A DNA stretch of 64,000 nt from Psammoneis japonica. Taxonomy: Eukaryota. A program made the position numbers and the translations under genes. The notes under the pieces were generated by a model. It was given only the letters and a program-made list of their open reading frames with translations, searched no databases and was not told the DNA's origin. Where the stretch lies: assembly GCA_008632985.1 (NCBI GenBank), contig QPGO01000077.1, positions 248,001 to 312,000 on the forward strand. Reading direction: 5' to 3'. This document shows, piece after piece, positions 1,700-58,480 of the stretch (its first letter is position 1; the number at the start of each line of letters is the position of its first letter).

Positions 1700-2131
1700 G
1701 CGGGAAATCGGTCTGCGAAATGATCCCCCAGTTTTCTAGAATTTAAATCGTAATAGATCTCTATCGAGGACATGTAAGTGAGGGCGCCTCACCAACTAAG
1801 ACTTATTTACCCGGCTTTCAGTGTGTGACTCGTATATTACTTTCTCAGAGCAAATTAGCACAGAAGTGATTTTCGTTCAATGCGATGCAATCGACGAGAA
1901 ACAGCCTCTACTAGAAAGGTCTCAAAGCCTGTTGGCGTTATTCCTTGTCTCTCGACGAGCTGCCGCAACCACGACTTGAGAAACAATTCATGCCTAAAAA
2001 TTTACCCGATAAAAATTAAGAGTAGAGCCTGGCAAGAGCGTGGTGCCAGCCCGAGTCGGAGTTGACAAGCGCCATTCCTGGCATCATGCCGCAGATTTGT
2101 GAGACGAATGGTGATCGTTCTCACAAAAGGG
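1650..2131 (+). repeat. Diverged direct repeat, copy 1 (3' end of the DUF1269-like gene plus downstream DNA)
   Basis: Shares long blocks with 5945-6410, e.g. gaggacatgtaagtgagggcgcctcaccaacta and gtgtgtgactcgtatattactttctcagagcaaattag. Confidence 0.85.
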
Positions 2132-3330
2132 GTGCTTGTTCAAGCTGTAAAATGACACTTCTTGTGGATGCCAGCTCAAACGGCATTGGATGTGATCACT
2201 GCCAGTCAAAGTCATGTTGCAAACTTGTTGTGAGTGCATTGCACAAAACGTGTCTGAGAAGCACCCAAAGGCAATGAACAGCAGTCAGAAGGCATGGGGG
2301 GCAAAAAAGTTGGCACCATGGCAGTGGGCTGCAAGGCACCTAAAAGATCTCAGGACTGCACTGGGTGCAAGGGTTGGAAAAATGCCAGGTGAGTTGCTCT
2401 GCTGATGCTTGTTTCTTTGCATCCTTTGTTGCCAACACATGTTGTGCCACACGTTGCACTTGCCACCAAGTGTGCTGGGTGCTGCAAAGAAACCAAAGAT
2501 TCTTGCCAAAAAATGTAAACTCAAACAAAAAAACAAGCAAAATGTGGCAATCCCTGCTGAGTGGGAAGAAGAAAGTCCCAGCCATGGGCCACAAGCTGGC
2601 TGCTGCACTTCAAACTCCATGGTGCCGACTGCAAATGCCTCTTGCGTGGGAAGATGCCAGCTGAGGGTGTCATGCATCACACCAGAAAATGGCATGATTG
2701 AAGCACAGCACTGGCTGGCAAATGGAAAAGGCCACGCTCATGGGTGGACAGCTTTGTCAAAATAAAAACAGGCATCCACAACAGCAAGGGCAGCTCACCA
2801 TTTTTGCTTGGCAGGCTCGCACACACCTCCCACAATCTCATGTTGGTGCTGCACATCTCTGGAGCATGAAGACAGCACTGGCCCTCTGCCCTGACACAAG
2901 CAACAAGTGCCAAATCAGGTCTGGATTGACAGCATCCATGCAATGAAACTTGGCACCAAAGCCCAGTGGCTGCCAGGCATCCTTGGCAGTGGCCCCACGC
3001 AACAGCCCAAGCCCACTGCAAGGTTGAAGCTGGCACCAGATTTTTCACTCAAATCACATGAGCAAATGACAAACTGCTCTGTTGCACAGCATGCAGCTCT
3101 GCCCATGCTGTGTCACTGTGTTGACTCTGTTGTTTGCAAACCCAAATTGGCTGACTGTCATGCACTGACACAGAAATGTTTGGTGGCTCCTGGCCAAAAC
3201 AGAGCAATCATGTGTGTGTGCAACACTCAGCCACAATCAGCAGGCATGGCAGGCACAGAGTGAGGTGTCACAGTCTGTGATGTCATGATGAAGCAAACAC
3301 ATGGTCGGCAACGTCATCTGTTTTCTGAAG
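2130..3330. mobile_element. TpA/CpG-depleted degenerate insertion, probable transposon relic (family not identifiable)
   Basis: Begins where similarity to the 5945-6410 repeat copy ends. Nearly free of TA and CG, with many Cys/His/Trp-rich spurious ORFs. Confidence 0.45.
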
Positions 3331-3597
3331 TGCGCACAAGTTTCTTCCATTTCTTAACAAAATTTTTCACAGTTGTTGCCTGAGAACAATCGTGTCACCC
3401 CAAAGGACAGTTGAAGAACCGAACTGCTGCAGTGACAACAACAGCAACAGCTGTTGCATTTTTGCCCTTCAGGCCGAGACAAAAAAAGAAGACCAAGAAG
3501 AAGCACAAAGCACTCTTGCACTGAAACAAATGCAACAAGCAAGCAAAAGGGAGAGAGAAAAGATCTGTCACAACGCACAAACAAGGTGAAACCAAGA

Positions 3598-4687
3598 ATG
3601 GATGTGCTCATGCAGAGTGGGCTGAACAGGCAGAATTTGCTTTGTTTTTACAATGGCAGACTGCTCAACAATGGCAGACACATTGCAAAAGGCACGCAGA
3701 TGCCAAACGGTGCATGTGCACACAACATTGCAAAAGGCACACAGCTTCCCAATGGAATGGCCAAATGCAAGGGATTGCAGATTGAGAGTTGGAACACCAT
3801 TTTGCAAGCCACACTTTCCTCAAACTTTGTTGAATCTGTTCTTGGCTCAAACTGGATCAATCCAGATCTCCTTGGACCAGCCGGAGTTGGAGACCTGACA
3901 AAAGTCCCAGGAATCAAGAACGCCAAGGGTGGTGACTGTGGACAGGAAGATGATGTCTGCCATCTCGACAATCGCCACATTGGTGCAAATCTCATGACCC
4001 AGCTGTGTGGTGGTGAGAACAACACCAGCAGCAATCAAGGTGCCGAGGCCGCCAACCTTGCGAGGGAGTTCACGGATGCTCTTCTCCATGTTGGATGGCC
4101 CGCCAATGCCGAGCTTTGGCTTTGCTGTGATGGGCCAGCTGGCGCAGACGCAACGGAAGCGTGCTCGGATCCTGACTTTGTTCTTCCGACATTGCCGAGA
4201 GAAGACAAAGACTTTCCCGGAGCAGCGCCACATTTCCTTACCGAAATGTTCGAAGAGCGCCAACAAGAAGCACTGTCCGCTTTTCTGGTGGCCAAGCTGA
4301 ACGTCCATGGTACGAACCTGATGATGGAACTCGCGGGGCGTTTTGACCTTGGCCCTGCCGGAACGTTGTTTCTTCCAAGAGAATATGCGGATGAATACCA
4401 CTACGAGCTTGGGCAGTCCTGGGGTAACATGTTCCTCGATTGTAACGGCGCTGATGCTGGCCATTACTTCTGCGAAGCGTCTCGGGAGGAAGATCGGGTC
4501 TTAGGCCGTAGTCCAATGTATCATTCGTTGCCGCTATTCTCATGCAGCGGCGAGAGCCTTTACCCGACAAAGGAGTCTGGAAAGGCGTGTTACAGCACTG
4601 ACATGGATACCAATATTGCTCATGGCTGTGGCATGGTCGCGTCTGTGGGTGGATGTGACGAGACGTGCATCGCTGGTTTCTGTGGAG
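3598..4687 (+). CDS. Uncharacterised Cys-rich protein, truncated by the gap; 5' half hypermutated; start uncertain
   Basis: Long open frame with protein-like composition running into the N-gap. Contains an internal IAKGTQxPNG duplication. Almost all Tyr codons lie after about 4380. Confidence 0.45.
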
Positions 4688-10976: not shown

Positions 10977-13299
10977 ACTAGCTAGCTAGAGTAGAGAATA
11001 GAGCACGTGAGAGGGGTGTTTCCCGAAGTTCAACGGAACACACGAAACCCAACACGAAGCCACCCTTGCATCTGCCCTCAACGATGCCGGCATCTGCCTC
11101 ATCCTCTTCACCATCGATCACTTCGGAGCTCCCGGCTGCTTTGCACACCGCCTCCTCTTTGGAGTCAATCAACAACACCCCCTGTCCCCACCACCACCAC
11201 CAGCAGCAGCAGCAGCAGCTCCCCCTTGGACCACCGAATCCTCCTCCTTCCAACATCCCGCCGCCCGTGCCGCCCGACGCGTTCCAGCCCCCAGGTGGGA
11301 CTCCGTGTGACATTGGGCCCGTAGAATTCTACGTGCGAGCTCCGTAGTACGAGAATTTAATTAATGGATATATTTATCTTCAACATCAAATAAACGGCCA
11401 AGTTTGTGGTGCAATTATGCCTCTTACCACTCGACGTTTTTGCAAATGCACCTGCCCTACGCGATTCTTAAGACATCATAGAATCGCGCTGTAACAAAAA
11501 ATGTCAAAAGTTTTTGGACGGATCGCTCAATAAGTGCACCGTAAAATGACACAAAATGTCAAAAAAATCACGTAGAAATCTACGTGCGCGACATACGACG
11601 TGATTCAAAAAACTGTCGATGTCACAGTTCAGTAGTGCGAGGTCCCACCTAGACCTGGAACGCGTCGCCCATGCCCTCGCACAACTGCGCCCCCCGTCCA
11701 TCTGCCATCTTCCCCACCACCACCACCACAACTTGAAAAACACATCTCCAGCACATTTTGGCTTGACCCACCACACTTTGACTCCATCACAATGGGGCCT
11801 TCAAAGCCTTGGCTTTGCAACAACCAAATCACTTGCCAACCAACTCACCCGCTGCTCCGCCAAACTGCAGCCCCGCCAGCTCACCAACCCCAAGAACCCC
11901 AATCCCATCCCTTTCCCTGTCCACATGACTCAGCTCCACCCCTCCTCAGCATCTGTTTCTCTCACTGCACCACTGCATGACATTGCACGTGAGCTCCTCA
12001 TGCGTGCACACCAGGTTGCTTCTGCAAACAATGTGGCGTGCATTTTGGTTGACCAAAATGGCTTTTTTTGTTGGTCAGTGCAAATTTGTTGACAAAACAA
12101 AATGGGAAGACATGCACAGAGTTTGTGTTTGAGTTTTGTGTGCTGTTTTTGAATGAAATCTGGCTGTGTCATGAATTTGACCCCTTGGTGGTTTGTGCAC
12201 ATGCCACCATGTTGGCGGCTCAGCTCAAAATGTGTCGAGTTGTCGCAGCCAGTGGTGCTGAGTCACAAAGCATTGAAGCCCACATTCAGAAGGGACTTGG
12301 CACTTGCACAGAAACAGGTGCCAGGCAGTGTCATCTTCCCATTGGGGTCATCTGGCACTGACATGTCTCTGGGAGAGTTGGGTTCTCTCTTGAGCCTTTC
12401 GTGCATCAGCAGAGCTCTCACTCTGACACAATGCCAACTCTTGCATTTTGCAAATCTCTGCACACTTCAGAACCTGGTGGCTTCTGCCATTTTTGTTTGA
12501 GAGATGTGCTGCAATTGTTTGCAAGGTTGCTGGGGCTTTTTTGCCAACCAACCCACTGCATGATGATGCCACGAAAGGCATGAAATGACCGTGCTGGTGC
12601 TCAATTCATGGCTTGAGATGCTTGCATTTGTTCTCGCATTTTTTCTCCTGTTTTCACAACATTCAGGAAACAAATCCATCCATGACATTGCATCTTCAGC
12701 AATGGGCAAATCCATTTCAGGTTGTGCTGAGAAGGAGTGAATCTCCTTCATGAACATCTTAGGAGAGGCAATTGTGTGGAGTTGCTGGATTGCATTCACA
12801 TGCGAAATGCTGGATTTGCACCCCCAGACCCGTGATGAACCATGCACAGGTTTTTCAAAAAGAGTGGGAACAATGGTTGGCACCAATTGCACCCTGATTG
12901 ATTGTTGGCAGTTGGTGACAAGTTGCAGCATTTTTCAGTTATGAGCTCCAGCTGTTTGGCTTCATGTCAAACAAAGCCAAATGCAGCAGCTTGAATTGAC
13001 TTGCAGCTGCAGCTTTGCAAGCCTGTGTGTTCAAAATTGTGCAGCACTGTTGCTTTTGCTGGCATTCACAACACACGCAAAATGACAACACCAACAATGG
13101 ACATGTCAAATGATCTCCACAAGCAAGGTGAAAAAAAGCAAATGAGGGCCAGTTTGGTTGGCTGATCCAGAGACCCATGTGCCTTTCCACAAGTGCAGCA
13201 AAAGCCCTGCCATGCAGACACAGCCTGGATCCCTTGTCATGTGGGTCACTGGCACAATGTGACATGCATGCCAGAGCCTGAGAATGACATGTTTTTAAC

Positions 13300-14330
13300 T
13301 TGCTGCGGTTTTCCCTCATGCATTCATGCATCTCTTTGAGGCAACAAACCACTGGATGAATTGTCAGCATGGAACACATTGGTTGGTTTTTGCCACTCTT
13401 CTTGTCTTGCTGCAATTTCCACACTTTTTTTCCAATCTCAGAGTGGCAGATTTTGAAACATCATGTCATGCCTTGAGTCTCTGGCAGTTGGCGTGGTTTT
13501 CTTTTGTCATCGTTTGGACTGGAGCACAGTTGTGAGCAAGAGCAAGCACCACATCATTGAGGCATTGCAACCAACTTTTTCAATCCACCATGAGCTGGCA
13601 GCTTTCAACCCATCATCACCACATTTGGCAGAAATTTTGTTCGTCATGTTGATTGCCATGATGCAAACTGAGCACCTGGAGAGTTTTTTTGGTGCTTCAC
13701 ATGGTTTGTGGTCCCCCGGACCTGCGCCACTTGTTGTCGAATGTGACCCACCCAACATTTTGTGTTGGCTTGATTGTGGCAACATGAAGTGATGCAGATG
13801 ATCCATGTGCCAGTCAGGGCTTTGCCTCTCTAGAGAGTCCTGTGCTGCCCATGTCAGAAACTCCCATTGTGAAAATTCTGTTCTCCCTGCTGGCACTTCT
13901 GAGCAAGACAGGACCCACCCAACAAACATGTTCAACAAGATGAAATCTTTCACACCCATGTCCGCTTTCTTGCACCATTTTTTGCATTGCGACTCATTTG
14001 CAAACTCACTGCATGCACGCAGAGTGCTGGTCACCTTTGCCAACAGTGTCACAAGTTGCCTGGTGATTTAAGACAGGGTTGGGGCACAACATGGAACAGC
14101 ATTTTTTTCTCTTTTGCAAGAACTTGTCTGATGGAAACCTCTCCAACTTCTGTCATCACAAGCATTGTGCAGCAGTTCACCACTTTGCTGTCACACCACT
14201 GCTGCACCAGCTGCACCTTGTTGGCTTTGTTGCAAGCCTGTTTCAACAAAAAGTGCCATGGATGTCTTTGCTTTCTAAGTTCACCACATTTTTGTCTGAC
14301 CTCTCTCGTTGATTCTTTCAGTCAGACAGT
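13300..14330 (-). mobile_element. piggyBac-like (DDE_Tnp_1_7) transposase relic
   Basis: Remnant motifs QWCDSKVVN (W.D.K.V) and KKWCKKADMGVKDFILLNMFVGW (KKWYKK...D...N...W), followed by a CxxC C-terminal region. Frameshifted and Tyr-free. Confidence 0.65.
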
Positions 14331-14769
14331 TTCCCATGCTGCACATTTTGCATGCATCCTGTGATGTTGCAGCCAGCTCAGAATGCTGATGGCAGTTGTC
14401 CAGTGCAGTGTGTTTCCAGCCACCCATTGCCAAATGGAATGTGAGATCATGACTTGACAATTGAGTTGATGACCACCTTCTGTGTTGTGGAGAAGTTGTG
14501 GCACCTTGCTTCTGTGTCAACAAAGGAGTTGTTTTCATTCTTTCCCTGGTGCATGTCCATGTGTGTGGTGAGTTTGTGTTCTGCCTCAGCTCCTGAAATT
14601 AAAAAAAAGTCAGCTCAGAGCTCATCAGGCTTGTCTTTTTTGCATTGTTGCATGGCACGGGACAAAACCTGGGCTGGCAACCCATGCTCAAATGCTGCAC
14701 AATGACCCAGAACAAATGCCCTCAATGGAAGTCATGTTTGGTTGATTCAAGACTTTCACAGCTGACAAC

Positions 14770-15976
14770 ATTTGTCTCCACCCATCATGGATTCAGTCAT
14801 TTCTTCTGGATGCAACCCGGAAACTGGCTGCTTGTTCACCACTCAACAACAGCTCCAACGCTGCTCCCGAGGTGTCCACATTGGTTTTGCGCCTCACCAA
14901 CCTGAACATCTCATCTTTGCACCCAAGGGCATCAGAACAAAGAATCTGATTGTTGCATGTGACGTCGCATTCAATGAATGTTTCAAATCCTCACTCGCAC
15001 ACGACCACACTCCATTCTCAGGTGCACCCCCAATCTGGAACATGTCCAATGACGCATCTGGCCTTGCCACTCATGACAAGACACCAGCAGACAAGCATGC
15101 AGATGCCATCCAAGATTTCCTCAATGTTGACTCACCTGCTTCCCCCCCTGACCTTGTCGACACAATGTCAGACAGTGATGAGTCCAACTCAGAACCACCT
15201 CCACCCAAACCTGCTCCCACCAGCTTGCGACGCTCCACTTGCTCCAATGTTGGCTTGTGAACATCCGTGTGCTTCACTGATGAACACACCAAACTGTGCA
15301 CTGCATCAGCTCTCCCTCCCATTGACTTGCTCAAGCAAACCCTCTTCGATGGCTCACTTGCCATGGAAGAAGCTCGACTGCAAACATGCACAACTGTCCT
15401 GGTCCATTGCAACAGGCCTTGGAAGCCATCCAAGCCACCACCAACCTCCCCATTGATGACTGCTTGCCCACTCCTTGCACTTTTTGAGCCATCCTCAGAC
15501 AACCACCCACGATTTGTGATGCCTGGCTTCATGCCGTCTGCTCTGAGCTTGAAAACCTCCTCATGGACAATGAAGCTTGTGCTCTCAACAAATGTCCACG
15601 TCCCAACGATGAGATTGTTGGCACCACCCTTGCTCTCCATGCCAAACAGAAGCCAGATGGTTCCCTCAAGAAACTCAAGGCAAGATGCTGTGCACACGGT
15701 GACGTGCAGCACCAGTCCAACGACAACGACAGTTGGCCCCCCAATGCCTCCTCCCGAGCCATCAAGCTGTTCTTGGCTTTTGCCGCGCAAGCCAAACGAC
15801 ATGTCAAACATGGTGATTTCCTTGGTGCTTGCCTTCAGGCTCCCACTCACGGCTGTCTCTTTGTCCATTTTGATCTGACTCTGAAGCAACGTTTTCTGGA
15901 ATGCACAGAATGTTTTGGTGTGCCTCTCAGACTCAAGAAGGGCATGTGCGGGACTCTGTCAATTTGCTTGGGCTGA
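14770..15976 (+). mobile_element. Ty1/Copia pol relic (post-integrase region and RVT_2 N-terminal half)
   Basis: IGFAP...NLIVACDVAFNE resembles the SRDVxFxE motif. KPDGSLKKLKARCCAHGDVQ, AIKLFLAFAA, HGDFLGACLQA and LRLKKGMCG are Copia RT motifs with Y to C changes. Confidence 0.85.
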
Positions 15977-44963: not shown

Positions 44964-47900
44964 CAATGGCTATCCAGCAGTTCCTCACATCCAGCCACGG
45001 TTACATAATAAGTAGGATTTGTACAGTAGAATTCGTTGAAACATACTGTACGACGTCAGCAAGAACATGTGTCTGGTATGCATCCTACATAATATATACA
45101 GTACATACTACCGTAGGGCTATTGTCAGTACATGCATTACGAGACGACATGATTCACAAGTGGGATGAAAGGAACGTGCCGATCATGAGGATACACTGCA
45201 ACAACACACATCTGTTACACTTGGCAGTAGATCGAGATATGAGGCGTCATAGTCGTACAAACGTCGTATAGTCGTAGTGGGTAGAACCGACTTCAACTAC
45301 GAGATACATCATCGCACATTGAACTTCCACAAGACATCGTTCCCGCTGACGTTCACAACCTCACCGGTGTGATGCCGCTGCTGTTAGCAGCACATCCCAA
45401 TGTAGAGCGCACGAGCGAACGATGACGTGTCAAGCAAATCGAGACGAGCGATCTACAACGTGTCGGGTCCGTCAATCATGCACGGAAGTTTGCTTCAACC
45501 CTCATTTTTCATGAGATCTGAACTTTTGCAAAGGAAGACTCTCCAGCCATCTCGACACAAAGCATCGCCAGTTGCAGCTGAGACAACATCTGCGGGGACC
45601 AGAACACACTGGTCGCAGAGTCTGCAGAGACCGGGAAACACCGGTTGCAGATTTGTCATGTCGCATTCATTGTCATTCATTGCACTCTTGACACACTGAA
45701 GATTCACTGCACACACTCGTCTGCTGAGTCCAGAAAACACTGGAAGTGGACCCTGCAGTGACTGGGAACACCAGTTGCAGGTCGGATTGTCTGCCATCCA
45801 TTGATCACATTGACTTTACTCAGATTGTTCTCATTGCAAGTCTCATGGGTCGTTGTGTCATCTGGTGTGCACCCATTGCTGCGTTGTTGGCTCAACTCAT
45901 CTTTGCGCAGTGTGAGCCTGCCGTTGCAAGCTGTCTCATGGATGACAGCAACACCAGGCACCGAGACAACACAAACAGACGTTTTGAGAAGCTTCATTGC
46001 AGGAATGGAAACGAGTGCGTCCCTTGGGTTTGTTTGGTGTGTGACAGATTGTCAAAACTGTCTCAGACCACTCGACTTTCTGTCAACAAATTGAAAGAAG
46101 CCAGACACCTGTTAACTCCATCTGAATGGAACCAAGTGTCGGAAGACCTGCACGATTGTTGTTGCATCGATGACGACCACATTCCACGGGATTGCCGATG
46201 GATTTCCGACCTGTTGCTTTCGCCAAGAGCTCGACATGTTGTTCCGAACGACAACAGAAGGTCTGAAGGATTCACTTGTTGCAGGCCTTGTAAAAGGAGT
46301 CTCTGCACTGCTTCCATGCCTCCACATGCAACAGCAAACAATTGCTGTTTTGGAACACCACCACCTGAATTATCGTGTCTTGCCGAAGCAGAACCAGCTT
46401 CATTGACACCTGTGAAAACATGTGGCTGCTGCTTCAGTTTTGTCAGTGGCAAACAGAAGAAACCACAAGGCAGTCTTTCCCATTGCAAGATAAACATGAA
46501 GAGCATCGCCCGCACCATTGTGCACTTTGACGTGTTGAACCTTCATCAAAATGTGGTTGTGTTGGCATCCGGCAAAATGACACCAGAGCAAAGGCGAACG
46601 GCCAGACAAAAGAACAAAATCAGGACTCACTGTGTAATGAGAGCACTGGAATGGCTTGTCCATCACCACGAGAATTGGATGAATCAAGACATCGATCTAG
46701 AGGAAGTGCGAAGCAATTTACAGAATCCAGTTTTAGTGGACAACAGCAGCCCAGACGAAAGCGAAAATGCAAACATTGAAACCACGGAGTCCCACAGTGT
46801 TTGTTTCCCCGATGGTGCCGTTTCTTCAACAACTGGTGGACAACGTAATTTAGACAGCTTCAAAGACTTGGTGCACGATGCAGCTGCAAGCGGTTTTGAC
46901 ATTGAATTCAAAGCTGATCTTTTGAAAGAATCAGTCAGTGACTTTAAGGATGACAACCTGGCAAATGCTTGCTTGCTGCAATTTCCTTGTGGGCGTGGCG
47001 GCATTGATGAAACAAGAATGAAAGAAGACGGGAGTCTCGCCGACTGTGCAAATCTAGCACATTGCGCAGATCACTTGGCCCGCATTTCTCAGCCCCATTT
47101 CCACAAGCAACTCTTTGTTCTGACCCTGTGCAATCTGACTGTGAAGCAACGAATGGTGCACAGTGCTGGATGGAAAGCAAGAGACAAAAATCAAGCCAGA
47201 CAATTCTCAAATGAACTGACACAAGACGACGTCGACCGTGCCACATGTGACAGACAGACTGGTGAACGCAGGAATTACGCATTGGGACATCGTTTCTTAA
47301 GTGCAGTGGATGTGGTGTCGGCATCTATTCCATGTGCAAATGAAGCAGCAAAAAAAATGAGAAGAAATGCTGAAACCTGCCAACACCACTTTGGACAACC
47401 TGGAGTGTTTTTGACGACAAGCCCCGATGATGCCAACTCCTTTTTAGTTCAAATTTGTGCGGACATGCTCATCGACAAAGGCAGAGATGTGACAGAAATG
47501 TCGGATGAAGAATTGGCAGAAAAGGCTAAGGCAAGAAACGAGCTTCGTGTGGAGCACCCAGGTGTCACGGCTTTTGCACTCGAAATGTCATTGGAAATCG
47601 TCATAGAAGAAGTGACAGGATGGGACTTAAAAAGGAATTCACCCAGAGAAGATTTTGAATTCTACGTGGGGAGACCCTCCGCTTTCATAGCTGCAATGGA
47701 AGAACAAGGTAGACTCTCGGCACACGGTCACATTCAGGCATGGTTTGAAGACACAAACACAGCAAGAGACAATCTGCATTCTGACAACAGAGATTTTAGG
47801 CGTGATGGTAAAAGAACACTGTCCAAACTGACCAGTCGGATCTGCACAACTGGGTTGACATGCAGCGAGGATTGCACTCGACTGTCCATCATAGAGACTT

Positions 47901-49324
47901 TTGATCATGATTGCACTGTTAATCTTGCCTGTTGCACTGTGCCTAAAACAGTCAGTAATCAGCAGCTTCGATGCCCAAGGCACAAGCACGGTCAGAAATC
48001 AAAAAACGGCATGTTCGCGCATTGCCCTCATTGTGCTAAATGCTGGACAAACCCAGAGTTTGTGGCATGTCATTTGTTGAGTAACAACCGCGTCCCTGGT
48101 CTGACTGCTTGTCCAGACAACACAACAAAGAGACTTAAAGCCATGTGTGTTCAGTGTCAACAATCCGATGAGAATGGGACAATCGAACCATGTGTTCCAG
48201 ATGCTGCATGCAGCCATCACATGCATGCTAACATCGCTTGTTTTTCTAAGCTGAAACAATTTCCAAAAAACAGAAAAAATTCCGAGAATGAAATGACCAC
48301 TGGCAGAAGCGCGCGCAAGCGTAAATTGCACGAGATGCAAAATGCCGATTGCCGTTTCAATCTCCCCGCCGCACACAGTAAAACAAAAGCATCGATCCAC
48401 CCACCTTTTCGCTCAAGCCTGAGTCTTCCACTTTCAAAGCCTGTCCAAAGGACCCAACCCAACAGATGACAGCTGAAAAAAAAGAGAAACACATGCTCAG
48501 ACTGAAAGTGACCCAATTGCCATTCATGACAAACAATGCGACTGCAGGACACAAGCTTCAAGGAAGCGGTGTCGACAATGTGTTTGTACATGGCTGGAGC
48601 TGTGCACAAAACTGGGCATGTGTCATGCTCTCCAGGGTTAAGACCAGAAATGGTCTGTGTCTTCGGCAACCGCTGAAGAGAGATTTAAGTCTACACAGAC
48701 TGCCGGATGGGCACAACGCCCTGCTCCGGTTGATGGAAGGAAAAAGTGTCACACACTTCACCAACGAACAGTGTGATGACATTTTGCAGTCCAATTAACA
48801 CATGGAACATTTTGATGCTGCATGTGGGAATTGTTTCTACATTTTGGAAAATGTTCCAAGCTTTGCACGCGGGCTTGCAGGTGTGCCCGGCAACAACCGA
48901 TAGAAAACAAAGGGTCCAATCTAACAAATCGATGTTAGCACATTGTTGCAATGACAGACACACTCAGCAACCAGTGATGCACAACGTCAGGACAGTTCTC
49001 TTGTCATCTGCTATAGAACGATCGCACCAGAATTGTCAAAAAGGGGAAACCCACGTCTCTTCTTACAATGCATCCACACACGAATGCAAGAATTAAATCG
49101 CCATTTTTTGACACAATGTTAAAACATAAACATGGAATTACGTCGCACATTAACCAATTGCGAACCCATCATTTAAGCGTGAGAATTTTTTAAAAAAATG
49201 ATTGGTGGCAAGCAAAGATCAAAGCTCTAAAATTTGATGCTCGCGCGCATGGCAATCCAAACCAGCCCGGGTTCCACACCTCCTCACTTCGTGTCCAGAG
49301 TTCCTGCCACAAAGGAGGAACCAA
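44964..49324 (+). mobile_element. Internally deleted Helitron-like element
   Basis: Absent from the duplicate copy (empty site cactaTAgcaact near 60470). Encodes a Rep/helicase relic. Has a 3' hairpin gttcct-N10-aggaac just before the end. Confidence 0.85.
45746..48798 (+). pseudogene. Helitron RepHel relic (DUF6570-like region, HUH Rep and PIF1 C-terminus; helicase core deleted)
   Basis: Motifs LQFPCGRGG, FGQPGVFLTTSPDD (motif 1), EEQGRLSAHGHIQAW (HUH), CRFNLP, and QLPF...ATAGHKLQG...ACVMLSRVKT (PIF1 motifs V/VI). Confidence 0.85.
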
Positions 49325-49790
49325 TGGCAACTTCCGTGGCGATGGGACGCAGGAAGCTTGCTTGTGACAGACACCAGCAGTGGGAGTGTTGCGAGTTTTG
49401 TTGGTTGCACAGCAGTTGCGAATGGCAGCACGAAACCCGGAAAATGTTGCACGGATTCCATCATTGCGACTGTGATTCTGCTCTAATCTGAAATCTAGCT
49501 CTGGCTGGTCTCTAGAGTTGCGCTTGGAGCCCAGTCAAGAAGGAACAAAATGACTCGTCGCTGGGACCCACCCAAAATAGAAGTGTGTGATGAGCCATTT
49601 GAATGGCTGAAACTGATTCAAAGAAATGCTTGTGTTTGGCCAAAGAAAGTCAACTGATCGACAATGAACTCTAACTGCATGTAACGCGCCGTGTTTGTCA
49701 CATCCACCATGCCTGCACACACGGAACAATCACCTTCATTGTCAATCACAAGGTGTCTGTCCCATCACACGCATGCTCTTGAGCTCGATG

Positions 49791-50306
49791 TTACATCATG
49801 ATGAAGAAGGATCCAAAACCCAAAAGGACAGCAGCTGGCACATGGTGAGTGCGGACAGCGCCAACTCCGGAAGCATCCAAGCATGAGTGGGAAACTCCAG
49901 ATCCAGGACCACAAACATCCGGACGGGAACACCAGGCACCACACTGCTGAGCACAACGAATGGGGTTTGGAGGGGTCACGCTCAGATTAGGGCAACTGGG
50001 ACATTTGCACGAGGAAGCGTCATCGCAGATCTGATCCAATGTCGGAAGCGTTGTTGGAGGAGTGCAACAATCGAATTGCGAGCCCGCACTGTTCCCGCAA
50101 TTTTCGACGCAATGCGCATTGCATTCGACACTGTTATCACTGTCAGTGAATGGCTCGACAACTTTCGTCACATCGCAGACCTCTTCTGAACTGTCAGAAG
50201 AACAGAAACATGTTGTGGCAAATCCACTTCCATTGTCGGAACAGTTCTGTCCCTTGACATCGACAAAGAATGCAGAGAGCAACGACAAAGCAACAACGAT
50301 CTTCAT
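49791..50306 (-). CDS. Small Cys-rich secreted, possibly GPI-anchored protein, copy A (hypermutated, Tyr-free)
   Basis: Signal peptide and hydrophobic C-terminus. Close paralog of 60936-61454 with all four Tyr changed to His or Cys. Confidence 0.7.
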   Translation of the reverse strand: MKIVVALSLLSAFFVDVKGQNCSDNGSGFATTCFCSSDSSEEVCDVTKVVEPFTDSDNSVECNAHCVENCGNSAGSQFDCCTPPTTLPTLDQICDDASSCKCPSCPNLSVTPPNPIRCAQQCGAWCSRPDVCGPGSGVSHSCLDASGVGAVRTHHVPAAVLLGFGSFFIMM

Positions 50307-50631
50307 GGTCAACTTCTTTGGATGCTGCCGAAGTAACAGGTGTCAAGTAAACAGCTCAGAACTGCCAAGTCAGAAAAAGTGTATGTCTTTGATGAGCAAC
50401 TTTGAGATGGTGAGCGCGATCTTTTCACTCGCGCGAGAGATCAAGATGGCGGGAAATATTCACAGGGCAATACATATATTCAATTATGGGGTTGTTGTTA
50501 TAAAGAACGTCACAAGTTGAAGTTGTCAACGACAAGGCAATTTGAGTTTTCGAAAAATTCGATCTTGCTTCATGCAAAGGTTTTCTATGTAAGGTTCACT
50601 TTTGCGGTTCGCCCTCGCCACAACAACAACA

Positions 50632-53313
50632 ATGGGCAACTCCGAATCCACGCGTCCGTTAGAACAGTGGACCAAAGACGATGTGGCTAATTCTGTCGCG
50701 TCGTTGGGTGGACCAAAGTACAAGGAATACGCGTCTTCAATTCGCGATTCCGGAATTGACGGCGGTCTCTTGACCTCCCTGGAGGACAAGAGCGAACTGG
50801 AAGACATGATGGACGAGTTGGAGATTTCGTCCAAGATTCATCGAAGAGTGATTGCGCGAGCACTGGAGTCGTCACTTGAGGATCATCAAGAAGAAACTGA
50901 CAAGGATACAGCAGCTATCACTGCTGTCGAGACGACGTCCAAGCAAGTCGTGCCGGATTTTTTGGCTGCAGAAGAGTACGGCTTGACCGCCTTTACGCCT
51001 GTTTCCGAGATGCATGAGTTGGATGGACTCTCCCAACAACTCTTGCGATCCAATTCCAACACGAGTTATGCCGGCGTCCACTTATGTCGAACTGACGGGA
51101 TGCACGTATTGTGTGGAAACCTGCGTGGACCGAATGGACAAGTCACGCCTATGGATCGAGGGAAAATTATGGACCATGGACAAAGTTTTTGTTCTCAATT
51201 GGTGCTGGACAAGTCGAAAGATTTTGTCATTCGTGAGGCAACGCTTGAAGCATATCGTTCCATTGGATCCACCTATGTGGGCCACGTTCTCAAAAACGAA
51301 AACGGGTCAAGGCTGGGTGTGCTGTGTCAATTTACGACAGACTCGTTTCACGAGAGCCAACGATACGCAGAGTCCCTGCGACTCGTGTCTGCCGAGATTG
51401 CAGCGATGATGGAACAGCAACTCCGGCTGCGAAAACAATTACTCGATCGAAACAAGTCTCTTTCAGAACAAATTGAGACATCCAAAAAGGAATACATGGA
51501 CATGGTGAGAAATCAAGAGCAGGTTCAACGACAAGAAGACATAGCTAAGAGCGAATCACGTTCAGTTGAAGACCCATGTACGAACTCGAACTTGTTGCCG
51601 TTTGTCGCAAAGTCCCATCTGGCGTCCGAGTTGGAACGGGAGCACATTCCTGTCTCGGTTGACAAAGAGGCGTTTCTTCTCGGCATGCCAAAGCCACCAA
51701 TTGGAAAAGACGATATGGCTCGCGTAGCCAGGGTGGAGGCCTTGGGGTTGCACAATATCGATCCAAACTCGGCTATGGCCAAGCAGCTCAAAGGATTGAT
51801 TGCCCGGACGTGTTCCTTGTTTGGATTTCCGATCGTGACTATTACGATTCACAACCACATGCATCAATTTTGCTTAGGCATGATTGACAGTGGCCTTGGC
51901 ATCATCGACGTCATGGACGTAGTCAACCGTGATGTTGAAGGAACACCGTTTTGTTTGGCATATACACGGGGCGTCTCCGCCTGCAACTACACAATTCTCA
52001 AACGACGCACTTTTATGGTACCCGACATGAGCAAGGACGAAACGTTCAAAAATTACGGCGCCACGACAACCAGTCCATTGCGTGCCTATGTTGGTACCCC
52101 AATAATCTCTTTTGACGGATACGTTGTGGCTGTGCTTTGCATGCTGGACTCGGTTCCTAGATACGATTTCACAAAATCTCACGAATTGGAAATTGAACGA
52201 ATGGCTCTCCTCGTCACACAGAGTATTGAGAATTGGGAGCATCGTCGCCTGATGGATCAACTCCTAGAAGAACGTAAGCTTCTTGAACAGCTCAAAAGCT
52301 CCATGGCGATGCAGGCAAGCAAAAAGCGCGAAGCGCCATCTGGCGAGGTCACAATCGTACTAACGGATATTCAGGGCTCGACAGCGTTGTGGGAGGCTGA
52401 CGCTGAAGCCATGAAGGAAGCACTGATCCTTCACGATCAAATCATCCGAAAATGCGTCTCTCAACACAGTGGCTACGAGATCAAGACTGAAGGTGACGCA
52501 TTCCATTTGGCATTTCATGATCCCTTGGACGCCATTGGCTTTGCCCTTCAGGCTCAGATTGACTTGTACAAGGCGAATTGGTCCGACAATATTCTTGCCT
52601 TGCCCGATGCAGACGTCGATGGAGACGGCTGTTTTCGTGGCCTTCGTGTTCGGATGGGTATACACCATGGCAGCGCCACGCCACAGATCAACGAAGTCAG
52701 TGGGCGTGCATTATATTCTGGGAAAACGTTTCGGGTAGCCAAGAGTGTGGAGGCTCTGTGTTTTGGTGGACAGATACTCGCAACGGCCGAAACTTGGCGG
52801 GTTGTTTCTGAACTGAGCGAACAGTTGGGAACTCCTCAGGTAGTCGATTACGGAGAGTACATACTCATGACGGGTGAATTCATTGACGAAGGTATCATTG
52901 CAAAGGGGGTGGTACAGTTGGTTCCAAACGAGTTGGCGTATGATTACTTTAGTTTGACCGGGAGCACTGGTAGTAGCCAAGAGGCGCTAGGGTCATCAGC
53001 AGCAAGAGGACGGAGATTTCCGCAGGTCAAATCGACTCGTAGACTTACTTCATTGTTCCTGGATGCGCCCAACAACAATGGAGCAGTTACCATGCTGTTT
53101 GTTTATCCATCGGGGACCGATGACTTTCCTGATGACTTGGCGGACCGGACGCTTTCGATACTGACAAAAGTCGTCCGATTGCCAAGCAGGAGCAACTCCA
53201 TGCAAAGGATGTGCCACTCCCTGCCATCACATGCCATGGTCCCAGACATCATGATGCAGAGGGCATCATGCACCCTCATGCACTGGCACTCTGAGCATGA
53301 GTTTTGCCAATGA
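50632..53313 (+). CDS. Myristoylated SAM-GAF-GAF class III adenylate/guanylate cyclase, copy A; truncated near 53175 by an insertion
   Basis: MGNSES; SAM (WTKDDVANSV...IDGGLL); GAF (CNYTI...FMVPD...YVGTPI...VLCMLD); cyclase (VTIVLTDIQGSTALWE, KTEGDAF, VRMGIHHG). The last about 45 aa are TpA-free foreign sequence. Confidence 0.88.
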   Translation: MGNSESTRPLEQWTKDDVANSVASLGGPKYKEYASSIRDSGIDGGLLTSLEDKSELEDMMDELEISSKIHRRVIARALESSLEDHQEETDKDTAAITAVETTSKQVVPDFLAAEEYGLTAFTPVSEMHELDGLSQQLLRSNSNTSYAGVHLCRTDGMHVLCGNLRGPNGQVTPMDRGKIMDHGQSFCSQLVLDKSKDFVIREATLEAYRSIGSTYVGHVLKNENGSRLGVLCQFTTDSFHESQRYAESLRLVSAEIAAMMEQQLRLRKQLLDRNKSLSEQIETSKKEYMDMVRNQEQVQRQEDIAKSESRSVEDPCTNSNLLPFVAKSHLASELEREHIPVSVDKEAFLLGMPKPPIGKDDMARVARVEALGLHNIDPNSAMAKQLKGLIARTCSLFGFPIVTITIHNHMHQFCLGMIDSGLGIIDVMDVVNRDVEGTPFCLAYTRGVSACNYTILKRRTFMVPDMSKDETFKNYGATTTSPLRAYVGTPIISFDGYVVAVLCMLDSVPRYDFTKSHELEIERMALLVTQSIENWEHRRLMDQLLEERKLLEQLKSSMAMQASKKREAPSGEVTIVLTDIQGSTALWEADAEAMKEALILHDQIIRKCVSQHSGYEIKTEGDAFHLAFHDPLDAIGFALQAQIDLYKANWSDNILALPDADVDGDGCFRGLRVRMGIHHGSATPQINEVSGRALYSGKTFRVAKSVEALCFGGQILATAETWRVVSELSEQLGTPQVVDYGEYILMTGEFIDEGIIAKGVVQLVPNELAYDYFSLTGSTGSSQEALGSSAARGRRFPQVKSTRRLTSLFLDAPNNNGAVTMLFVYPSGTDDFPDDLADRTLSILTKVVRLPSRSNSMQRMCHSLPSHAMVPDIMMQRASCTLMHWHSEHEFCQ

Positions 53314-56300
53314 AGACTGGCAAGAAATGTGCCCACCAAGAGGTGAAGAACTTGATGGGAGTGCATTTGGGCAGGCTTGCACAAGCCCAACTGCTCAACA
53401 GTGATGATCAAGGTTCTGCACAATCAGTTCTCCCTGTGAGCCCATCTGCCATGTCACTTGCTGGACCAGAACTCCAGACCTGCTGATGAACCCAACAACA
53501 GTGCCAATCAAGGTGGCAGCCAGTGCTTGGTGGAGCTGGCAGCAGAGATCAGCATCATGAGCTGGGAGCTGCTTTCCCACCATGCATTGTTTTGCACCTT
53601 GAGCCACTCATGTGCCAGCAAAGCCACTCACAAGATTTGCCTTTTTGCATCATCCAAAAGGCATGTGCTTTGAGAATCATGAATGTTGTGGAGCCCATTG
53701 TAACCTGGCATTGGGCTGTCAATTTGCTGGATGACTTGCCTGGCTGCAGCCCTCACCTGCTGACTTTGTGTGACCCACACATCAGCAGTGCCCACAGAGC
53801 TCAGCAAATTGGGCAACCCAGCAGATGAGAAGGTGTGAAACTTTTGCACTCTTTGGGCTGAATCCAGTTGGCAAAACACCTGCACAGGGAACCCCACCTG
53901 GCAGGGAATGTGAGCAAGCTGTGACATCCAGCCACTGGGCTGTTGAACAGCCTGTGCACTGATGGAGCCCAAGCCCTGTTTGCTGCTGAAGACTGAGCCA
54001 CCATCAACCAAGACTCTGGAGGCTGTTGATTGCAGCAGCCATCTCTCCACTGACAACCACTTGCAGTTCCTGGAGGCAGACATGGCAGATTTGATCTAAA
54101 AATGCTGCTGGGTCATCCCATCTCACTGCATTGCCAAGATTCCTCCACATCTGTGGACTGCGGATGTTGCCCGAGTGGGTGTGGTGCCTCCTCAACAAGA
54201 CCAGCAACCATGCACCACAGTTGACTGCAGCTTTTGTGGCCTCAATGATGAGACTGAGATTTGCCCCCCCCCCCCCCCCACACACACACACACAGGAGGC
54301 CCTGCAATTTGGCCATGCACAGGACAAAGATGTTTGCCAAACTGGGGGGGCCAGACCCATGGCGAACACTGCATGGCACACCACAGATCTTCAACTTGCC
54401 TCTGACTCCACTGCATGCACTGGAACAACAACCCATCTTCCAATCATGTCAAGCCACTGCCCATCCAAATTGTGTGCCAGGCACAAGCCTTGGTCTGCAC
54501 CTCTCCCAGCGACACCATGTGCCATTGTCAACCCAGCCTGGGTCAGCCTCTTGCACTTGCTGCACCCCAGCAAAGACTCCAATGGCAAGGACAACACCCC
54601 CTGGTTTTTGCAGATGCATGAAACCTCTCATTGGATGGTCAATGTGTGACCTTGACTGCCTTTTCTTTGCAACACACAGCAGTCTGACCTTCAAAACACA
54701 AAAGTGCAGAGAGAGCACTCTTGAGATGGTTGGCCACAGCCAGAGCTCCCATCCCAATGCACCATGCCCAGTTTTGTGGCACTGGCATGTCAGGTCCACT
54801 GCTTTTGTTTGCTGGGTTTGAGCTCACACATGCAATGCATGGCCAGCTTTGGCGCTGTTGACACCACCAAAACCCATCCCCAGCCAATGGCAGGACACAC
54901 CCCTGAGCAGCGTGGGTGGCAATCAGCAGCTGCAGCAGAGAAGGACCAGATGTGCAACCCCAACCACAGCCTTGAATGGAATGGATCGCTGTGGCAGCTG
55001 CAATTTTGACCCACTGCTCCTGCCCTGTTTTGCTGGAGGTGGCTCTGACTCCAAGAAGCTTTGCCAACCCTGGCAAAAGAAGCTGCTGGCAGTGTGCCAC
55101 CCCCCAACACAGTGGGGCCCACTGCCAAGCAGGGTGGGTGGGCAGTTGGCTTTGTTGGGTTGCAAGCCAGTGGCATGAAACTTGCAAGCAGTGTTTGAAA
55201 TCCTCTCAGCCAACATGCATGTGTGGCAGCAGTGTGCACCAATTTGCAGCATGTGGTCTTCTTGCAAGGTGCTCAGTCCTGCCTTTGTCAAATGCTTCTC
55301 AGGACTCAGCAAGGCTTTGTGGTTTGTGCCACAGCAAAAACTGCAGACCAATGCAATGATGGCACGCCAACACCAACAACTTTTTCTGGCTGCCATGCAC
55401 ATGTTTGTTGCATCCAATTGGCAATTGCACTTTATCCACATGCAGGCAGCCTAACTTGTGCATGCTGGATGCAGCCAATTTGATGAAATGGTGCCAAAAT
55501 AAATCAAAACATGAACAAAGCATTTGAAAATTCAACAAAGCAATTGAGTGTGTCATCTCTTGCAGGGCACTGGGCCAGTGCTTTCCATTTGGTCATTGAG
55601 TTGAAGCTCCAGTCAGTTTGCAAAAACAAAGATCTCTTGGTGACACAGATGGACAGCAAGTTGAAACAGCGTGAGCATGCATCCCTGACAGACCTTGTCA
55701 AAAATGTCTTGGGCAGCTCAAGAACTCACAAAAAACTGATTGTCAAGTGTGAACCTGCCAAGAACAACAAAAAGAATGGAGTCACTTGACTGGCAGGGCA
55801 GCCAATGAGTGGACAATGAGACACGGGGCCATGGCACCACAGCTGTTGGCTCTCTGCACAAAACACCAACTGTTGCAACAGCCAGAGAGTGAGCCCACTG
55901 CAGTCAACACCAACAATCTTAAATTGCAATGCCTGGGGCAGATGCACTTGTGAAAAATGTGTGCGCTTCTCTTTTGAGCATTGAACAATCTGTTTTCTGA
56001 CCTGTGGCAAGAGTTGCTTGCCACACTCTGCATTGACACAGCTCACTTGTTGCCAGCTGATTTGAGAAGCAGAGAGCAGAGCAGTGTGCATTTGATGCCA
56101 AGTCTCAACAGAATTTTGTGCATTGAAACATGGCCTGTTTCCCATTGAAAATTTCCATTGTGGACCAAGGAAATTTTTTGAGTGACCAAAACAAGATTGC
56201 AAAGAATCATGTGGCTTTTTGACAAACCAAGCATCTTTCTCACATTTTCTTTGACAGCAAGACTTGCTTCTTTGTGTCAATTGCTCTTCTTTTTCTTCTT

Positions 56301-58480
56301 TTCTTCATGCTCCACATCTTCTTGAGCAGTGTGCACTTCTTCTTGTTTGTCATCATCAGCCAATTGTTTCGTGCTTTGAGAGGTCAAGCCACCACCCACC
56401 AATTTGTCCATGTCTCTCCACTCTCCACCACAAGGCTGATGGCATGCAAATGAACAACTGACAACTTGTTCCAAGTTGTGCAGTTTCTTGGCTGCTTTCA
56501 AAAAAGGCCACTTGCCATGAAAAAGACAACAAAGACACACAAGCCATTGTCGGTGCAATTGCTGGTGTGATTTCTGGGGGATGCAGGTGCACTTCAGCAC
56601 TGCCATGCTGTGATGAACACAAACCCCAACTGCAGCAGAACAGGACAGAAACGTGGACAGGAAACTGTCAGCAGTTTTTGGTTCTCAGGGGTGCTGCCTT
56701 GCTCAAAGCCCTCTCCATGTGAGTGACAAAGATGAGCAGAACAATGAAACAGAAGAGCAGCATGACTCAACTCCAACACAGAGCAAAAGCAGGGATTGGG
56801 AGGTTTGCAAAGCACAAACTTTGTTCACAACCATCAAAGCCACCACCATTTGCTTTCAATCAAATGACACAATGAAATTCTCCATCGTGGCAAAGACTGA
56901 CAAAAATTGCCGGTGCTGCTAAAAGGATCCAGAACAGTGTGCAATGGCTGCTCATGGTTTTTCATGTTGATGTCTGCTGATGAATTGCAAGAATGCATGC
57001 CTGAATGAGTGTCTTGCACAAATTCATGGCTGATGGTGCATGCTGTGCAAAAAGCTCCTGTCTGTGCAGCACCTCACATTGATGTGCTTTGGGGGCAGAT
57101 GACAGCTTCTGTCTTCAATTGGTGGGGGCACTTTTTAAAAAAAATGATTGTTTTAAATTTGAGGGGCAAGCTCTGAATTTGATTTGATTGTCATCTTGAA
57201 ACACAAAATCAGTTGTCACTTGCACTGTCATGGGTCTCACCAGTTTGTTTGCTCTTGTTGTCAGACATGCTTGTCACATCTCACACTCCTCAAATCAAGG
57301 TGCTGGTCTCAGCCAGCAGTGGTGCACCATGTCAGCATCCTCCTTTTGCACTTGTGCTGGTCCTTGGCTTTGTTGCTGGAACAAATGTCACACATCAACC
57401 AGAAAGCTGTGCACACTTGGTTGAGAGATTTGCTGCCAAAAAGAGAGAGTGCAGCATTTTCAATTTTCCTGGAAAAATGCAGCATGCCTGTGCAACACCA
57501 ACTCATTGCCAGAGTGGCACTTGCACATGAAGAGAGAATGAAGCATTGCAGCAGTGTCACTTGCATGGCATGATTGAAAGCCAGTCAACAACACTCCATG
57601 GTCTGATTGAGAACCAGTCAACAACACTTGCCCTGATGTTTCTGGTTGCTGAAATCATTGCTGCCAGACAGCTCAACACATGCCACCCAAATCAGCTGCA
57701 TGATTGAGAGATCAAGCAAGTGGGTTCATGCCCATTTGCACACTTCACTGTCCATTTGCACAATGCTGGCACCATGGGACAGCTGACAAACCATGCTTTC
57801 ATCATGGAGCAGGGCATTGTGATCACCTGCTGGCATTTGTGGCATGTGATCTAAAGTTGATGTTTGGTCAAACACCTCAACCAAAATGGGCTCAACTGTG
57901 AACACCTGTGACAAAAAAATGTGGTGACAAAAAGTCTGTTTTGTCAATGTTTTGTGCAAGCCAATGCCCTCATCTGCAAGTCTGACCAAGTTCTCACATG
58001 CATGCATCACCTCAAAAACAAAACAGGTGCAGGTGTTTGAGCAAGCGGGGCACTTGGTTTGAAACAATGAAGTGGACAAGACTGCACCACCTGACCACAC
58101 CAAGTTTGTCTGTGAGCAGTTTCTTCTTGGCCACTCTGCCTTTGTTTGGATGAAAGCTTTTCCTCTGCTCCTGGCAAGTTGCGTGGAAGCATGATTGCAG
58201 TTGGGCTGCATCCTGACAGATGCTTCTGCATCATGTCATTTGTGACCACTGCAGCAGCGTTTTTGTGTCATCAGCTGCAAGGATGAGAATCTTCTCTGTC
58301 AATGCTGCCAGGACACCTTGTTCGAGGAGACTTTGTCTTGTGTGTGTCTTCCACTTCCATGTGAAAGAAGGAGCAACAACAGTTTGGAAATGACCCGTTG
58401 GCTGTTGGTGATGCTTTGAGTTGCATGGGGTCGTGGGCACCACAGGTGACAGCAGGCGCAGGGTCTAGAGTCCTCAGTCG
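53176..58480. mobile_element. About 5.3-kb heavily TpA- and CpG-depleted insertion (degenerate TE or nested TEs)
   Basis: Abrupt composition switch inside the cyclase ORF. Only a few TA remain, mostly YTAA. No domain confidently readable. Confidence 0.6.

Follow-up and report, generated by a model that had tools for sequence, protein, structure and literature searches.

In a 64,000-nucleotide stretch of the genome of the diatom Psammoneis japonica (contig QPGO01000077.1, positions 248,001 to 312,000; referred to here as the window, to which all results are confined), five discrete tracts were found to be nearly devoid of the dinucleotide TpA and poor in CpG, with a matching gain of TpG and CpA. 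One of these tracts carries a Helitron transposon and another the remnant of a Copia-type retrotransposon. We consider it probable, at roughly 0.8, that a domain-limited process in this diatom turns TpA into TpG or CpA in particular inserted or repeated tracts and that CpG decays to the same two dinucleotides there. This confidence covers the process and not the enzyme.

Dinucleotide observed/expected ratios were profiled in 400-base windows, the edges of the zones were placed from the positions of single TpA and CpG dinucleotides, and the expected counts per zone were taken from the rest of the same window as background. Together, the five zones hold 95 TpA against approximately 746 expected and 341 CpG against approximately 1126 expected (Table 1). 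A preliminary description of this DNA, made from the letters alone, had reported five sharply bounded zones that almost lack TpA and are saturated with TpG and CpA; the depletion turned out to be stronger than it had stated, and the edges at base resolution all lie at most about 60 bases from those first proposed. Within the zones, TpA falls to between 0 and approximately 0.1 observed/expected per 400-base window (0.04 to 0.41 in zone 4, which is clearly less depleted than the other four), TpG and CpA rise to 1.3 to 2.5, and the G+C content stays unshifted near 0.47 to 0.53. Runs free of TpA reach 1409, 1336, 1110, and 1000 bases. Flanking windows are mostly at 0.3 to 0.9 for TpA (full range, 0.26 to 1.33) and near 1 for CpG, and the proteins of the host open reading frames (ORFs) contain 1.2 to 5.5% tyrosine (Tyr), in agreement with the earlier remark that neighboring genes use TpA and Tyr normally. 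No mutual similarity between the five zones was detected by tblastx at an E value of 1e-3.

Table 1. Positions in the window of the depleted zones and of the features used to interpret them; counts are observed versus expected
Feature	Position	Strand	Description
Zone 1	2149..4238		TpA- and CpG-depleted tract; TpA 5 vs 83, CpG 36 vs 126
Zone 2	11651..16336		Depleted tract with Copia-type retrotransposon remnant; TpA 8 vs 187, CpG 67 vs 282; 1409-base TpA-free run
Copia-type reverse transcriptase (RVT_2) remnant	15464..15937	+	Inside zone 2
Zone 3	34828..36454		Depleted tract; TpA 4 vs 65, CpG 27 vs 98
Zone 4	45455..50430		Least advanced depletion; Helitron and adjoining duplicated segment; TpA 68 vs 199, CpG 186 vs 300
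Block in duplicate A, absent at same site of duplicate B	44964..49327	+	Carries Helitron; seen in self-comparison, junctions read
Helitron Rep frame, open, 913 codons, heavily missense mutated	45728..48466	+	Helitron_like_N, DUF6570
Mutated copy A of duplicated segment	49327..50430		Test case for in-place TpA conversion
Unmutated copy B of duplicated segment	60472..61566		Ordinary TpA
Control: GAF/cyclase gene of duplicate A, just outside zone 4	50437..52793	+	Partner, 61635-64000
Control: left flank of duplicate A	43259..44963		Partner, 58659-60471
Zone 5	53160..58465		Most depleted tract; TpA 10 vs 212, CpG 25 vs 320

TpA stands at 0.13 of background in the zones, and the other 12 dinucleotides (AA, AT, TT, AC, GT, etc.) stand at 0.84 to 1.22. 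CpG amounts to 8 to 62% of expectation, with a matching gain of TpG and CpA. The combined deficit of TpA and CpG in zones 1 to 5 (168, 395, 132, 245, and 497, respectively) is balanced by the combined excess of TpG and CpA (180, 409, 119, 264, and 524), so that the composition is as predicted by conversion of TpA and CpG to TpG and CpA. As these tracts have also lost CpG, that loss accounts for over half of the TpG and CpA excess. The preliminary description had dismissed deamination of 5-methylcytosine (5mC) as a source of the pattern; this was right in that such deamination cannot remove TpA, but it overlooked the CpG loss, which supplies a large share of the TpG and CpA saturation. The edges of the TpA and CpG depletions coincide within about 20 to 80 bases in zones 2 to 5. 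By our own arithmetic, with this window as the only background, the logarithmic loss of TpA is approximately 2.2 times that of CpG in zones 1 to 4 and 1.2 times in zone 5, which would fit two processes acting in parallel for as long as a tract is silenced, with TpA leveling off at a minimum.

Proof that TpA was converted in place comes from a segmental duplication found by comparing the window with itself. Its two copies, duplicate A (43259 to 52793) and duplicate B (58659 to 64000), are 88 to 95% identical, and each ends in a gene encoding GAF and adenylate/guanylate-cyclase domains (50602 to 53313 in duplicate A; 61818 onwards in duplicate B). Duplicate A is composed, in order, of a left flank, an extra block, a segment of about 1.1 kb, and the GAF/cyclase gene, and duplicate B of the partners of the first, third, and fourth parts (Table 1). 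The Helitron-bearing block of 4.4 kb was gained by duplicate A, and the interval between the duplicates contains zone 5. The segment that follows the block falls inside zone 4 in copy A, and its partner in copy B has an ordinary composition. At the 41 positions where copy B of the segment has TpA, copy A has TpG at 17, CpA at 15, TpC at 1, and TpA at 8, so that 32 of the 33 changes are transitions to TpG or CpA. The reverse direction accounts for 2 sites (32 versus 2; binomial P = 7e-8). Over the adjoining 2.4 kb, which served as a control, the 68 TpA of copy B correspond to 3 TpG, 3 CpA, 4 other dinucleotides, and 58 retained TpA, with 2 reverse changes; over the three control pairs, TpA to TpG or CpA in the two directions stood at 6:2, 4:5, and 2:5, the last two being from the left flank. 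The last converted site is at 50408, the first TpA after it that both copies retain is at 50457, and conversions beyond it are scattered (6 of 68). When TpA sites are set aside, segment and partner differ at about 6% of positions, similar to the flanks (3 to 10%). In the cysteine (Cys)-rich ORF of the segment, all four Tyr residues of copy B are histidine (His) or Cys in copy A. The TpA change was therefore made in place, after the duplication, and struck both strands about equally. The preliminary description had inferred conversion on both strands from composition, and the excess of TpA to TpG and CpA that it had asked for in a polarized spectrum is present in this pair. TpA loss in the segment ran largely without CpG loss.

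The last observation bears on an explanation by a single cause, in which deamination of 5mC leaves T:G mismatches and an error-prone patch repair of the DNA polymerase eta (Pol eta) type then mutates nearby A:T pairs. Such a cause would account for the shared edges of the TpA and CpG depletions and for a ratio of logarithmic losses near 2.2 in four zones. We nevertheless regard it as quite improbable. The hot spot of Pol eta is WA (W, A or T), and Pol eta also makes transversions, whereas ApA is undepleted in the zones (1.09 of background), the changes at TpA are transitions at all but one of the 33 sites, unlike those of Pol eta, and the paralogous segment lost TpA without a net loss of CpG.

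The direction of change is also recorded in the Helitron protein of zone 4, for which 14 relatives with 34 to 49% amino acid identity were found. This protein contains 0.2% Tyr, 5.9% Cys, and 4.5% His, and 11 of the 14 relatives contain 2.2 to 4.0% Tyr. At the 17 alignment columns with Tyr in at least half of the relatives, the window has Cys at 9, His at 4, another residue at 4, and Tyr at none; at the 8 columns with isoleucine (Ile) in at least 70% of the relatives, it has threonine at 4. The Cys and His replacements and the threonine replacements are the products of TAY to TGY or CAY (Y, pyrimidine) and of ATA to ACA, respectively. These Tyr and Ile columns, together with the abnormal composition of copy A, exclude the reverse reading of the duplicated pair, in which CpA and TpG would have become TpA in copy B, the direction taken by fungal repeat-induced point mutation (RIP). 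Among 29 metagenome loci encoding relatives of the Helitron, TpA observed/expected in the matched region is ordinary in 28 (0.32 to 0.87). Since the relatives have ordinary TpA and the Tyr residues were lost in the window, the change was made in place and is no trait of the elements.

That the zones might be natively poor in TpA and CpG, as a trait of the elements or because the DNA came from a source of such composition, is scarcely credible for this reason, although the zones are discrete blocks, three edges of which fall at breaks of homology. Besides the relatives with ordinary TpA and the loss of conserved Tyr, it is contradicted by the paralog comparison, where the change followed the duplication, and by the sharing of the depletion among five mutually unrelated sequences. 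The preliminary description had held the signature to be imposed on the elements, and this view is upheld by the 32 of 41 sites converted in the paralog, by the lost Tyr, and by the 28 of 29 ordinary relatives; its own proviso, that active copies might be natively free of TpA, is contradicted outright by those relatives.

The metagenome loci further help to separate the two losses. CpG observed/expected is below 0.7 in the matched region of 22 of the 29 loci, and TpA is ordinary in all of these except locus L008, so the decay of CpG and the loss of TpA are separable; this suggests that CpG methylation of environmental Helitron loci is common. Locus L008 (1 to 7761) has the full double signature (TpA, 0.01 to 0.03; CpG, 0.28 to 0.31; TpG, 1.83; CpA, 1.64), with 13 TpA in total, 4 of them in its last 70 bases. 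Two protein relatives are poor in Tyr, P0125 (0%) and P0126 (1.0%), and P0125 is not encoded by L008. The signature is therefore present in at least two further sequences (L008 and P0125). When compared with the window by tblastx, the metagenome loci matched mainly 45750 to 48900, with only scattered single matches elsewhere, and tblastn searches with the Helitron relatives matched zone 4 only.

TpA conversion is almost purely transitional and affects unrelated sequences, but it does not affect all TpA sites equally. Surviving TpA sites of the zones (n = 95) stand in the context YTAR (R, purine) in 51 cases, versus 287 of 1774 outside the zones (P = 8e-20), and in the context RTAY in 2 cases, versus 547 of 1774 outside. 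The base 3' of a surviving TpA is A in 59% inside the zones versus 20% outside, and the base 5' of it is T in 43% versus 22%. A single strand-symmetric rule would explain these biases, namely, that the A of 5'-T-A-Y-3', which is the same as the T of R-T-A, is hit fastest, with the order of preference T > C > G > A for the 3' base. In the paralog pair, 8 of 8 RTAY sites and 8 of 11 YTAR sites were converted, the same trend in numbers too small for a test.

Sequencing reads were available from three runs (X1, X2, and X3), and no piece of run X3 was placed on the window. Two contigs of run X1, with 1193 and 4024 letters, match zone 5 at 53095 to 54254 and 54301 to 58288 with 0 other letters; they were built from 31-letter words at a word depth of 32 to 37, with no excess in zone 5 (depth is not copy number). 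Modified bases cause systematic miscalls in some long-read chemistries, and modified bases of silenced DNA might in this way have been called as transitions in sequencing or polishing. Contigs of such length built from 31-letter words need accurate reads, however, which makes miscalling unlikely, and the zone 4 frame stays open over 913 codons with coherent changes from Tyr to Cys or His. An artifact is thus very improbable. The call of the preliminary description for confirmation in raw reads was answered in part, as the letters of zone 5 recur in the run X1 contigs, but from one sample that is possibly the assembly's own. In copy B, a 509-letter contig of run X2 matches 60954 to 61462 with 1 other letter.

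Other versions of the Helitron were seen in the same reads. Run X1 yielded 995 contig pieces that could be placed on 43001 to 63000 at 80% likeness, and their summed word depth peaks over 45002 to 49670. The places that differ among versions are dominated by transitions (A>G, 89; T>C, 85; G>A, 75; C>T, 71), with each transversion at 7 to 17. The 24 best-supported differences of those on 45567 to 49182 were classified (418 more lie beyond these). Twelve of the 24 make up six adjacent TG/CA swaps; 4 have CpA or TpG in the window versus TpA, 1 has the reverse, 4 have CpG versus TpG or CpA, and the remaining 3 differ in other ways. Ordinary mutation would need two changes to make a TG/CA swap, whereas independent conversion in each copy yields one naturally; the swaps fit a single ancestral TpA (or CpG) having been converted on one strand in some copies and on the other strand in others. 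The summed depth is 735 to 2488 over the Helitron and 972 over 61010 to 61676, versus mostly 30 to 140 elsewhere, which, although depth is not copy number, hints at many copies of both.

The depletion stops within tens of bases at the edges of the tracts. Zone 1 has its left edge where the homology between 2021 to 2128 and 6292 to 6403 ends. At the left edge of zone 5, a run X2 contig placed on 50592 to 53179 runs on in unlike sequence after 53179. The right edge of zone 4 coincides with the end of the match between the duplicates (50430 in A and 61566 in B), and contigs on copy B end loosely at 61572 and 61619. Zone 1 and an 899-base run of N (4688 to 5586) lie between the two copies of a repeat of 80 to 85% identity (1632 to 2128 and 5927 to 6403). 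This repeat may reflect a genuine duplication, or the assembler may have placed in tandem two versions of a single locus, one carrying the insert and one lacking it.

Several observations weigh against the process as we have described it. Some repeat-like sequences escaped: TpA is ordinary in copy B of the duplicated segment and in a 2.1-kb sequence at 29939 to 32028 with 51-nucleotide inverted repeats at its ends that are 86% complementary. The first 490 bases or so of the extra block in duplicate A (44964 to 45454) are undepleted and rich in both TpA and CpG, with 33 TpA at 45002 to 45305; depletion starts at about 45455, approximately 270 bases before the Helitron frame, and the stretch before it may represent either a distinct fragment or a 5' region that was shielded. 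Mobile-element domains were found in two of the five zones (Helitron and Copia type), and the link to repeats was seen in this one window only. For zones 1, 3, and 5, no credible Pfam domain was found in ORF pieces or in six read-through frames with stops read as X. The CpG arm is unpolarized, with 9 of 55 sites changed in one direction of the segment and 6 of 50 in the other, no clear asymmetry. Finally, all three sequencing runs derive from one sample and do not represent an independent strain. The association of TpA depletion with repeats, on which the preliminary description had relied, was seen only in part, in the two zones with recognizable domains and not in copy B or the 2.1-kb sequence. 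The latter, of low G+C content (0.38 to 0.46) and with no long ORF, is a candidate nonautonomous DNA transposon that escaped mutation.

With respect to the contents of the zones, the reverse transcriptase remnant of zone 2 matched Pfam RVT_2 at an E value of 1e-4, under the curated cutoff, and was matched in a tblastn search by the database relative P0135 (E value, 2e-13), which itself carries PF07727 at an E value of 2.1e-6. Three classes of transposon had been named for the zones in the preliminary description; Helitron and Copia-type sequences were recovered, but a piggyBac domain was found in no zone by Pfam searches of ORF pieces and read-through frames. Nothing credible was found in Pfam searches of read-through frames from 48300 to 50430 and from 60400 to 61640, and weak matches to Exonuc_V_gamma, DUF6876, WH_Egal, and DUF4734 were discarded, as all were far below the cutoffs. 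Terminal repeats were detected for none of the zones by purine/pyrimidine coding and exact 28-mers, a weak negative. The ordinary eukaryotic genes of the window include those for Vps35, Utp25, an arylamine N-acetyltransferase, a zinc alcohol dehydrogenase, and the two GAF/cyclase proteins. For the Vps35 piece, the closest named relatives, at 57 to 68% identity, belong without exception to diatoms, mostly raphid pennates (Epithemia, Nitzschia, Seminavis, Fragilariopsis, Fistulifera, and Amphora), in keeping with a diatom host.

Three further features are not depleted in TpA. The region from 60954 to 61619 encodes, in an ORF on the minus strand (60936 to 61454), a Cys-rich protein whose start resembles a signal peptide and whose tail is hydrophobic; contig word depth reaches 1046 at 60954 to 61462, and the loose contig ends at 61572 and 61619 show poor mutual agreement. 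This region may represent a young multicopy element or gene family. A diverged local duplication with 69% identity links 36818 to 37459 with 38552 to 39187, and a short tandem repeat lies at 24100 to 24355 within an ORF with PT-type repeats.

As a mechanism, we propose that a tract would be marked by the host silencing machinery. CpG would be lost from it by deamination of 5mC in methylated transposon DNA, and a second activity, recruited to the same domain, would act on TpA, producing A:T-to-G:C transitions on either strand. A DNA-acting adenine deaminase of the TadA/ADAT2 kind, which would make inosine that is read as G, is our tentative preference for this activity, held at somewhat less than even odds. 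The native substrate of TadA, U33-A34-C35, resembles 5'-T-A-Y-3'. An ADAT2-like deaminase has also been proposed for the chlorarachniophyte Bigelowiella natans (bioRxiv 10.64898/2026.01.13.699255). Transposons of diatoms are CpG methylated through DNMT5a (PMC9998398; PMC2806351), which would account for the CpG arm.

The main rival to an adenine deaminase keeps the same targeting but places the chemistry on thymine: a dioxygenase of the TET/JBP type would oxidize the T of TpA to 5-hydroxymethyluracil (5hmU) or 5-formyluracil, and the product would mispair with G and lead from T to C. Sequence cannot separate A to G from T to C on the opposite strand, T-A-Y being the same as R-T-A. Dinoflagellate 5hmU is known to prefer TpA, and 5-formyluracil mispairs. 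It is a TET/JBP homologue that makes 5hmU in dinoflagellates, where the base is enriched in repeats and is linked by the title of the report to transposon silencing (PMC11572971). Nonetheless, we judge thymine oxidation unlikely here, as 5hmU pairs normally with A, we have seen no mutational consequence reported in PMC11572971, the word diatom is absent from that paper, and we have seen no evidence for such a base in diatoms.

The transitions might instead have arisen at the RNA level, by A-to-I hyperediting of element transcripts that was then fixed by reverse transcription and reinsertion. Editing of the ADAR type favors sites with a 5' U and leaves its traces on both strands of double-stranded RNA, and zone 2 is a retroelement. 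This origin is barely conceivable, however: Helitrons, one of which occupies the best-documented zone, transpose as DNA; the duplicated segment next to this Helitron acquired its changes where it stands; editing does not typically reach near-complete saturation; and, to our knowledge, ADARs do not occur outside animals.

Whatever the enzyme, the consequences for coding sequence can be read from the genetic code. The TpA arm turns Tyr codons into codons for Cys or His and removes ATA codons as well as the stop codons TAA and TAG, which become CAA, CAG, TGA, or TGG. Alone it makes no new in-frame stop, so that frames can stay open while their proteins are ruined, which fits the open 913-codon frame of the Helitron. 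Because three of the five zones have no Pfam match and a fourth has one only below threshold, the transposon content of diatoms is probably underestimated; simple scans for TpA and CpG would find such relics that escape domain searches.

Our findings would extend mutational genome defense from one rhizarian alga to diatoms, dominant primary producers of the ocean, and to ordinary transposons, which speaks for a system of wide occurrence rather than an isolated oddity. They point to a natural A:T-editing activity on chromosomal DNA with a three-base site, of interest for base-editing enzymology. The window provides a clean internal assay, with a mutated and an unmutated copy side by side, in which the losses of TpA and CpG share edges yet can run apart. 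On a broader view, which we regard as speculative and rather doubtful, diatoms and chlorarachniophytes would share an old genome defense common to the stramenopile-alveolate-rhizarian (SAR) lineages, in which a 5'-T-A-Y-3' DNA adenine deaminase (or a thymine oxidase) would be recruited to CpG-methylated domains and would permanently rewrite invading elements as the mirror image of fungal RIP, killing their proteins by loss of Tyr without stops and leaving many unrecognizable transposon relics.

Several known systems can be compared with the process seen here. In animals, APOBEC3 and ADAR1 likewise hypermutate mobile or viral nucleic acid by base deamination with a preference for the neighboring base, but their substrates are the single-stranded cDNA or the RNA of a replicating parasite and not both strands of resident chromosomal DNA, and APOBEC changes C to T. 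Deamination of 5mC explains the loss of CpG from the zones with the gain of TpG and CpA, and it also fits the low CpG of most of the related Helitron loci, but it cannot remove TpA. The 5hmU of dinoflagellates is likewise an enzymatic change of A:T pairs in repeats, tied to transposon silencing in another SAR lineage (PMC11572971), but it is an epigenetic mark, for which we have seen no mutational footprint reported there, and is not known in diatoms.

RIP resembles the zones in that dinucleotide-specific, irreversible transitions strike both strands of sharply bounded tracts of repeated or mobile DNA and leave relics that are no longer recognized by homology searches. RIP, however, changes C to T (CpA to TpA in Neurospora) and thereby creates TpA, lowers the G+C content, and makes stops, whereas in the zones TpA is destroyed, the G+C content is unchanged, and the TpA arm produces no in-frame stops. 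RIP is also triggered by duplication of a sequence and hits all copies; here, many related contig pieces fall on the Helitron, but copy B of the duplicated segment escaped, and zone 5 shows no excess of word depth, although depth is not copy number. RIP further depends on a protein of the RID/DNMT4 type and on a premeiotic stage of the sexual phase; DNMT4 occurs in many diatoms, with unknown function (PMC9998398). The process resembles a mirror image of fungal RIP without sharing its defining chemistry.

No system of this kind was known to the preliminary description, but one has since been presented: hypermutation from A/T to G/C confined to TpA is already described for integrated viral DNA of B. 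natans, with rates measured in mutation accumulation lines (Mettrop et al., bioRxiv 10.64898/2026.01.13.699255). For diatoms, no report of TpA depletion or hypermutation was found in the literature searched, the term TpA is absent from Maumus 2009, and the hypermutation named in the SPLASH paper is that of antibodies. According to the main text of the preprint, B. natans and the zones agree in the change of TpA to TpG or CpA, in the near restriction to transitions, in the involvement of both strands, and in the local action, which in B. natans is directed at foreign DNA; the long-term footprint in B. natans is also a depletion of TpA with a gain of CpA and TpG, including in reverse transcriptase and DDE-endonuclease sequences. 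They differ in the host, a chlorarachniophyte (Rhizaria) there and a diatom here; in the measured targets, a giant-virus insert and a virophage insert there and Helitron and Copia-type transposons here; and in the degree of depletion, which is mild in B. natans (Rho of TpA, 0.45 in the giant-virus region) versus 0 to 0.1 here. The terms CpG, diatom, and context do not occur in the preprint text, supplements aside, so that coextensive CpG loss, the T-A-Y rule, and diatoms are not covered there. New here, then, are a host from another supergroup lineage, a diatom, ordinary transposons as targets, near-saturation of the conversion, edges shared with CpG decay, a three-base site rule, and proof within one window that TpA was converted in place.

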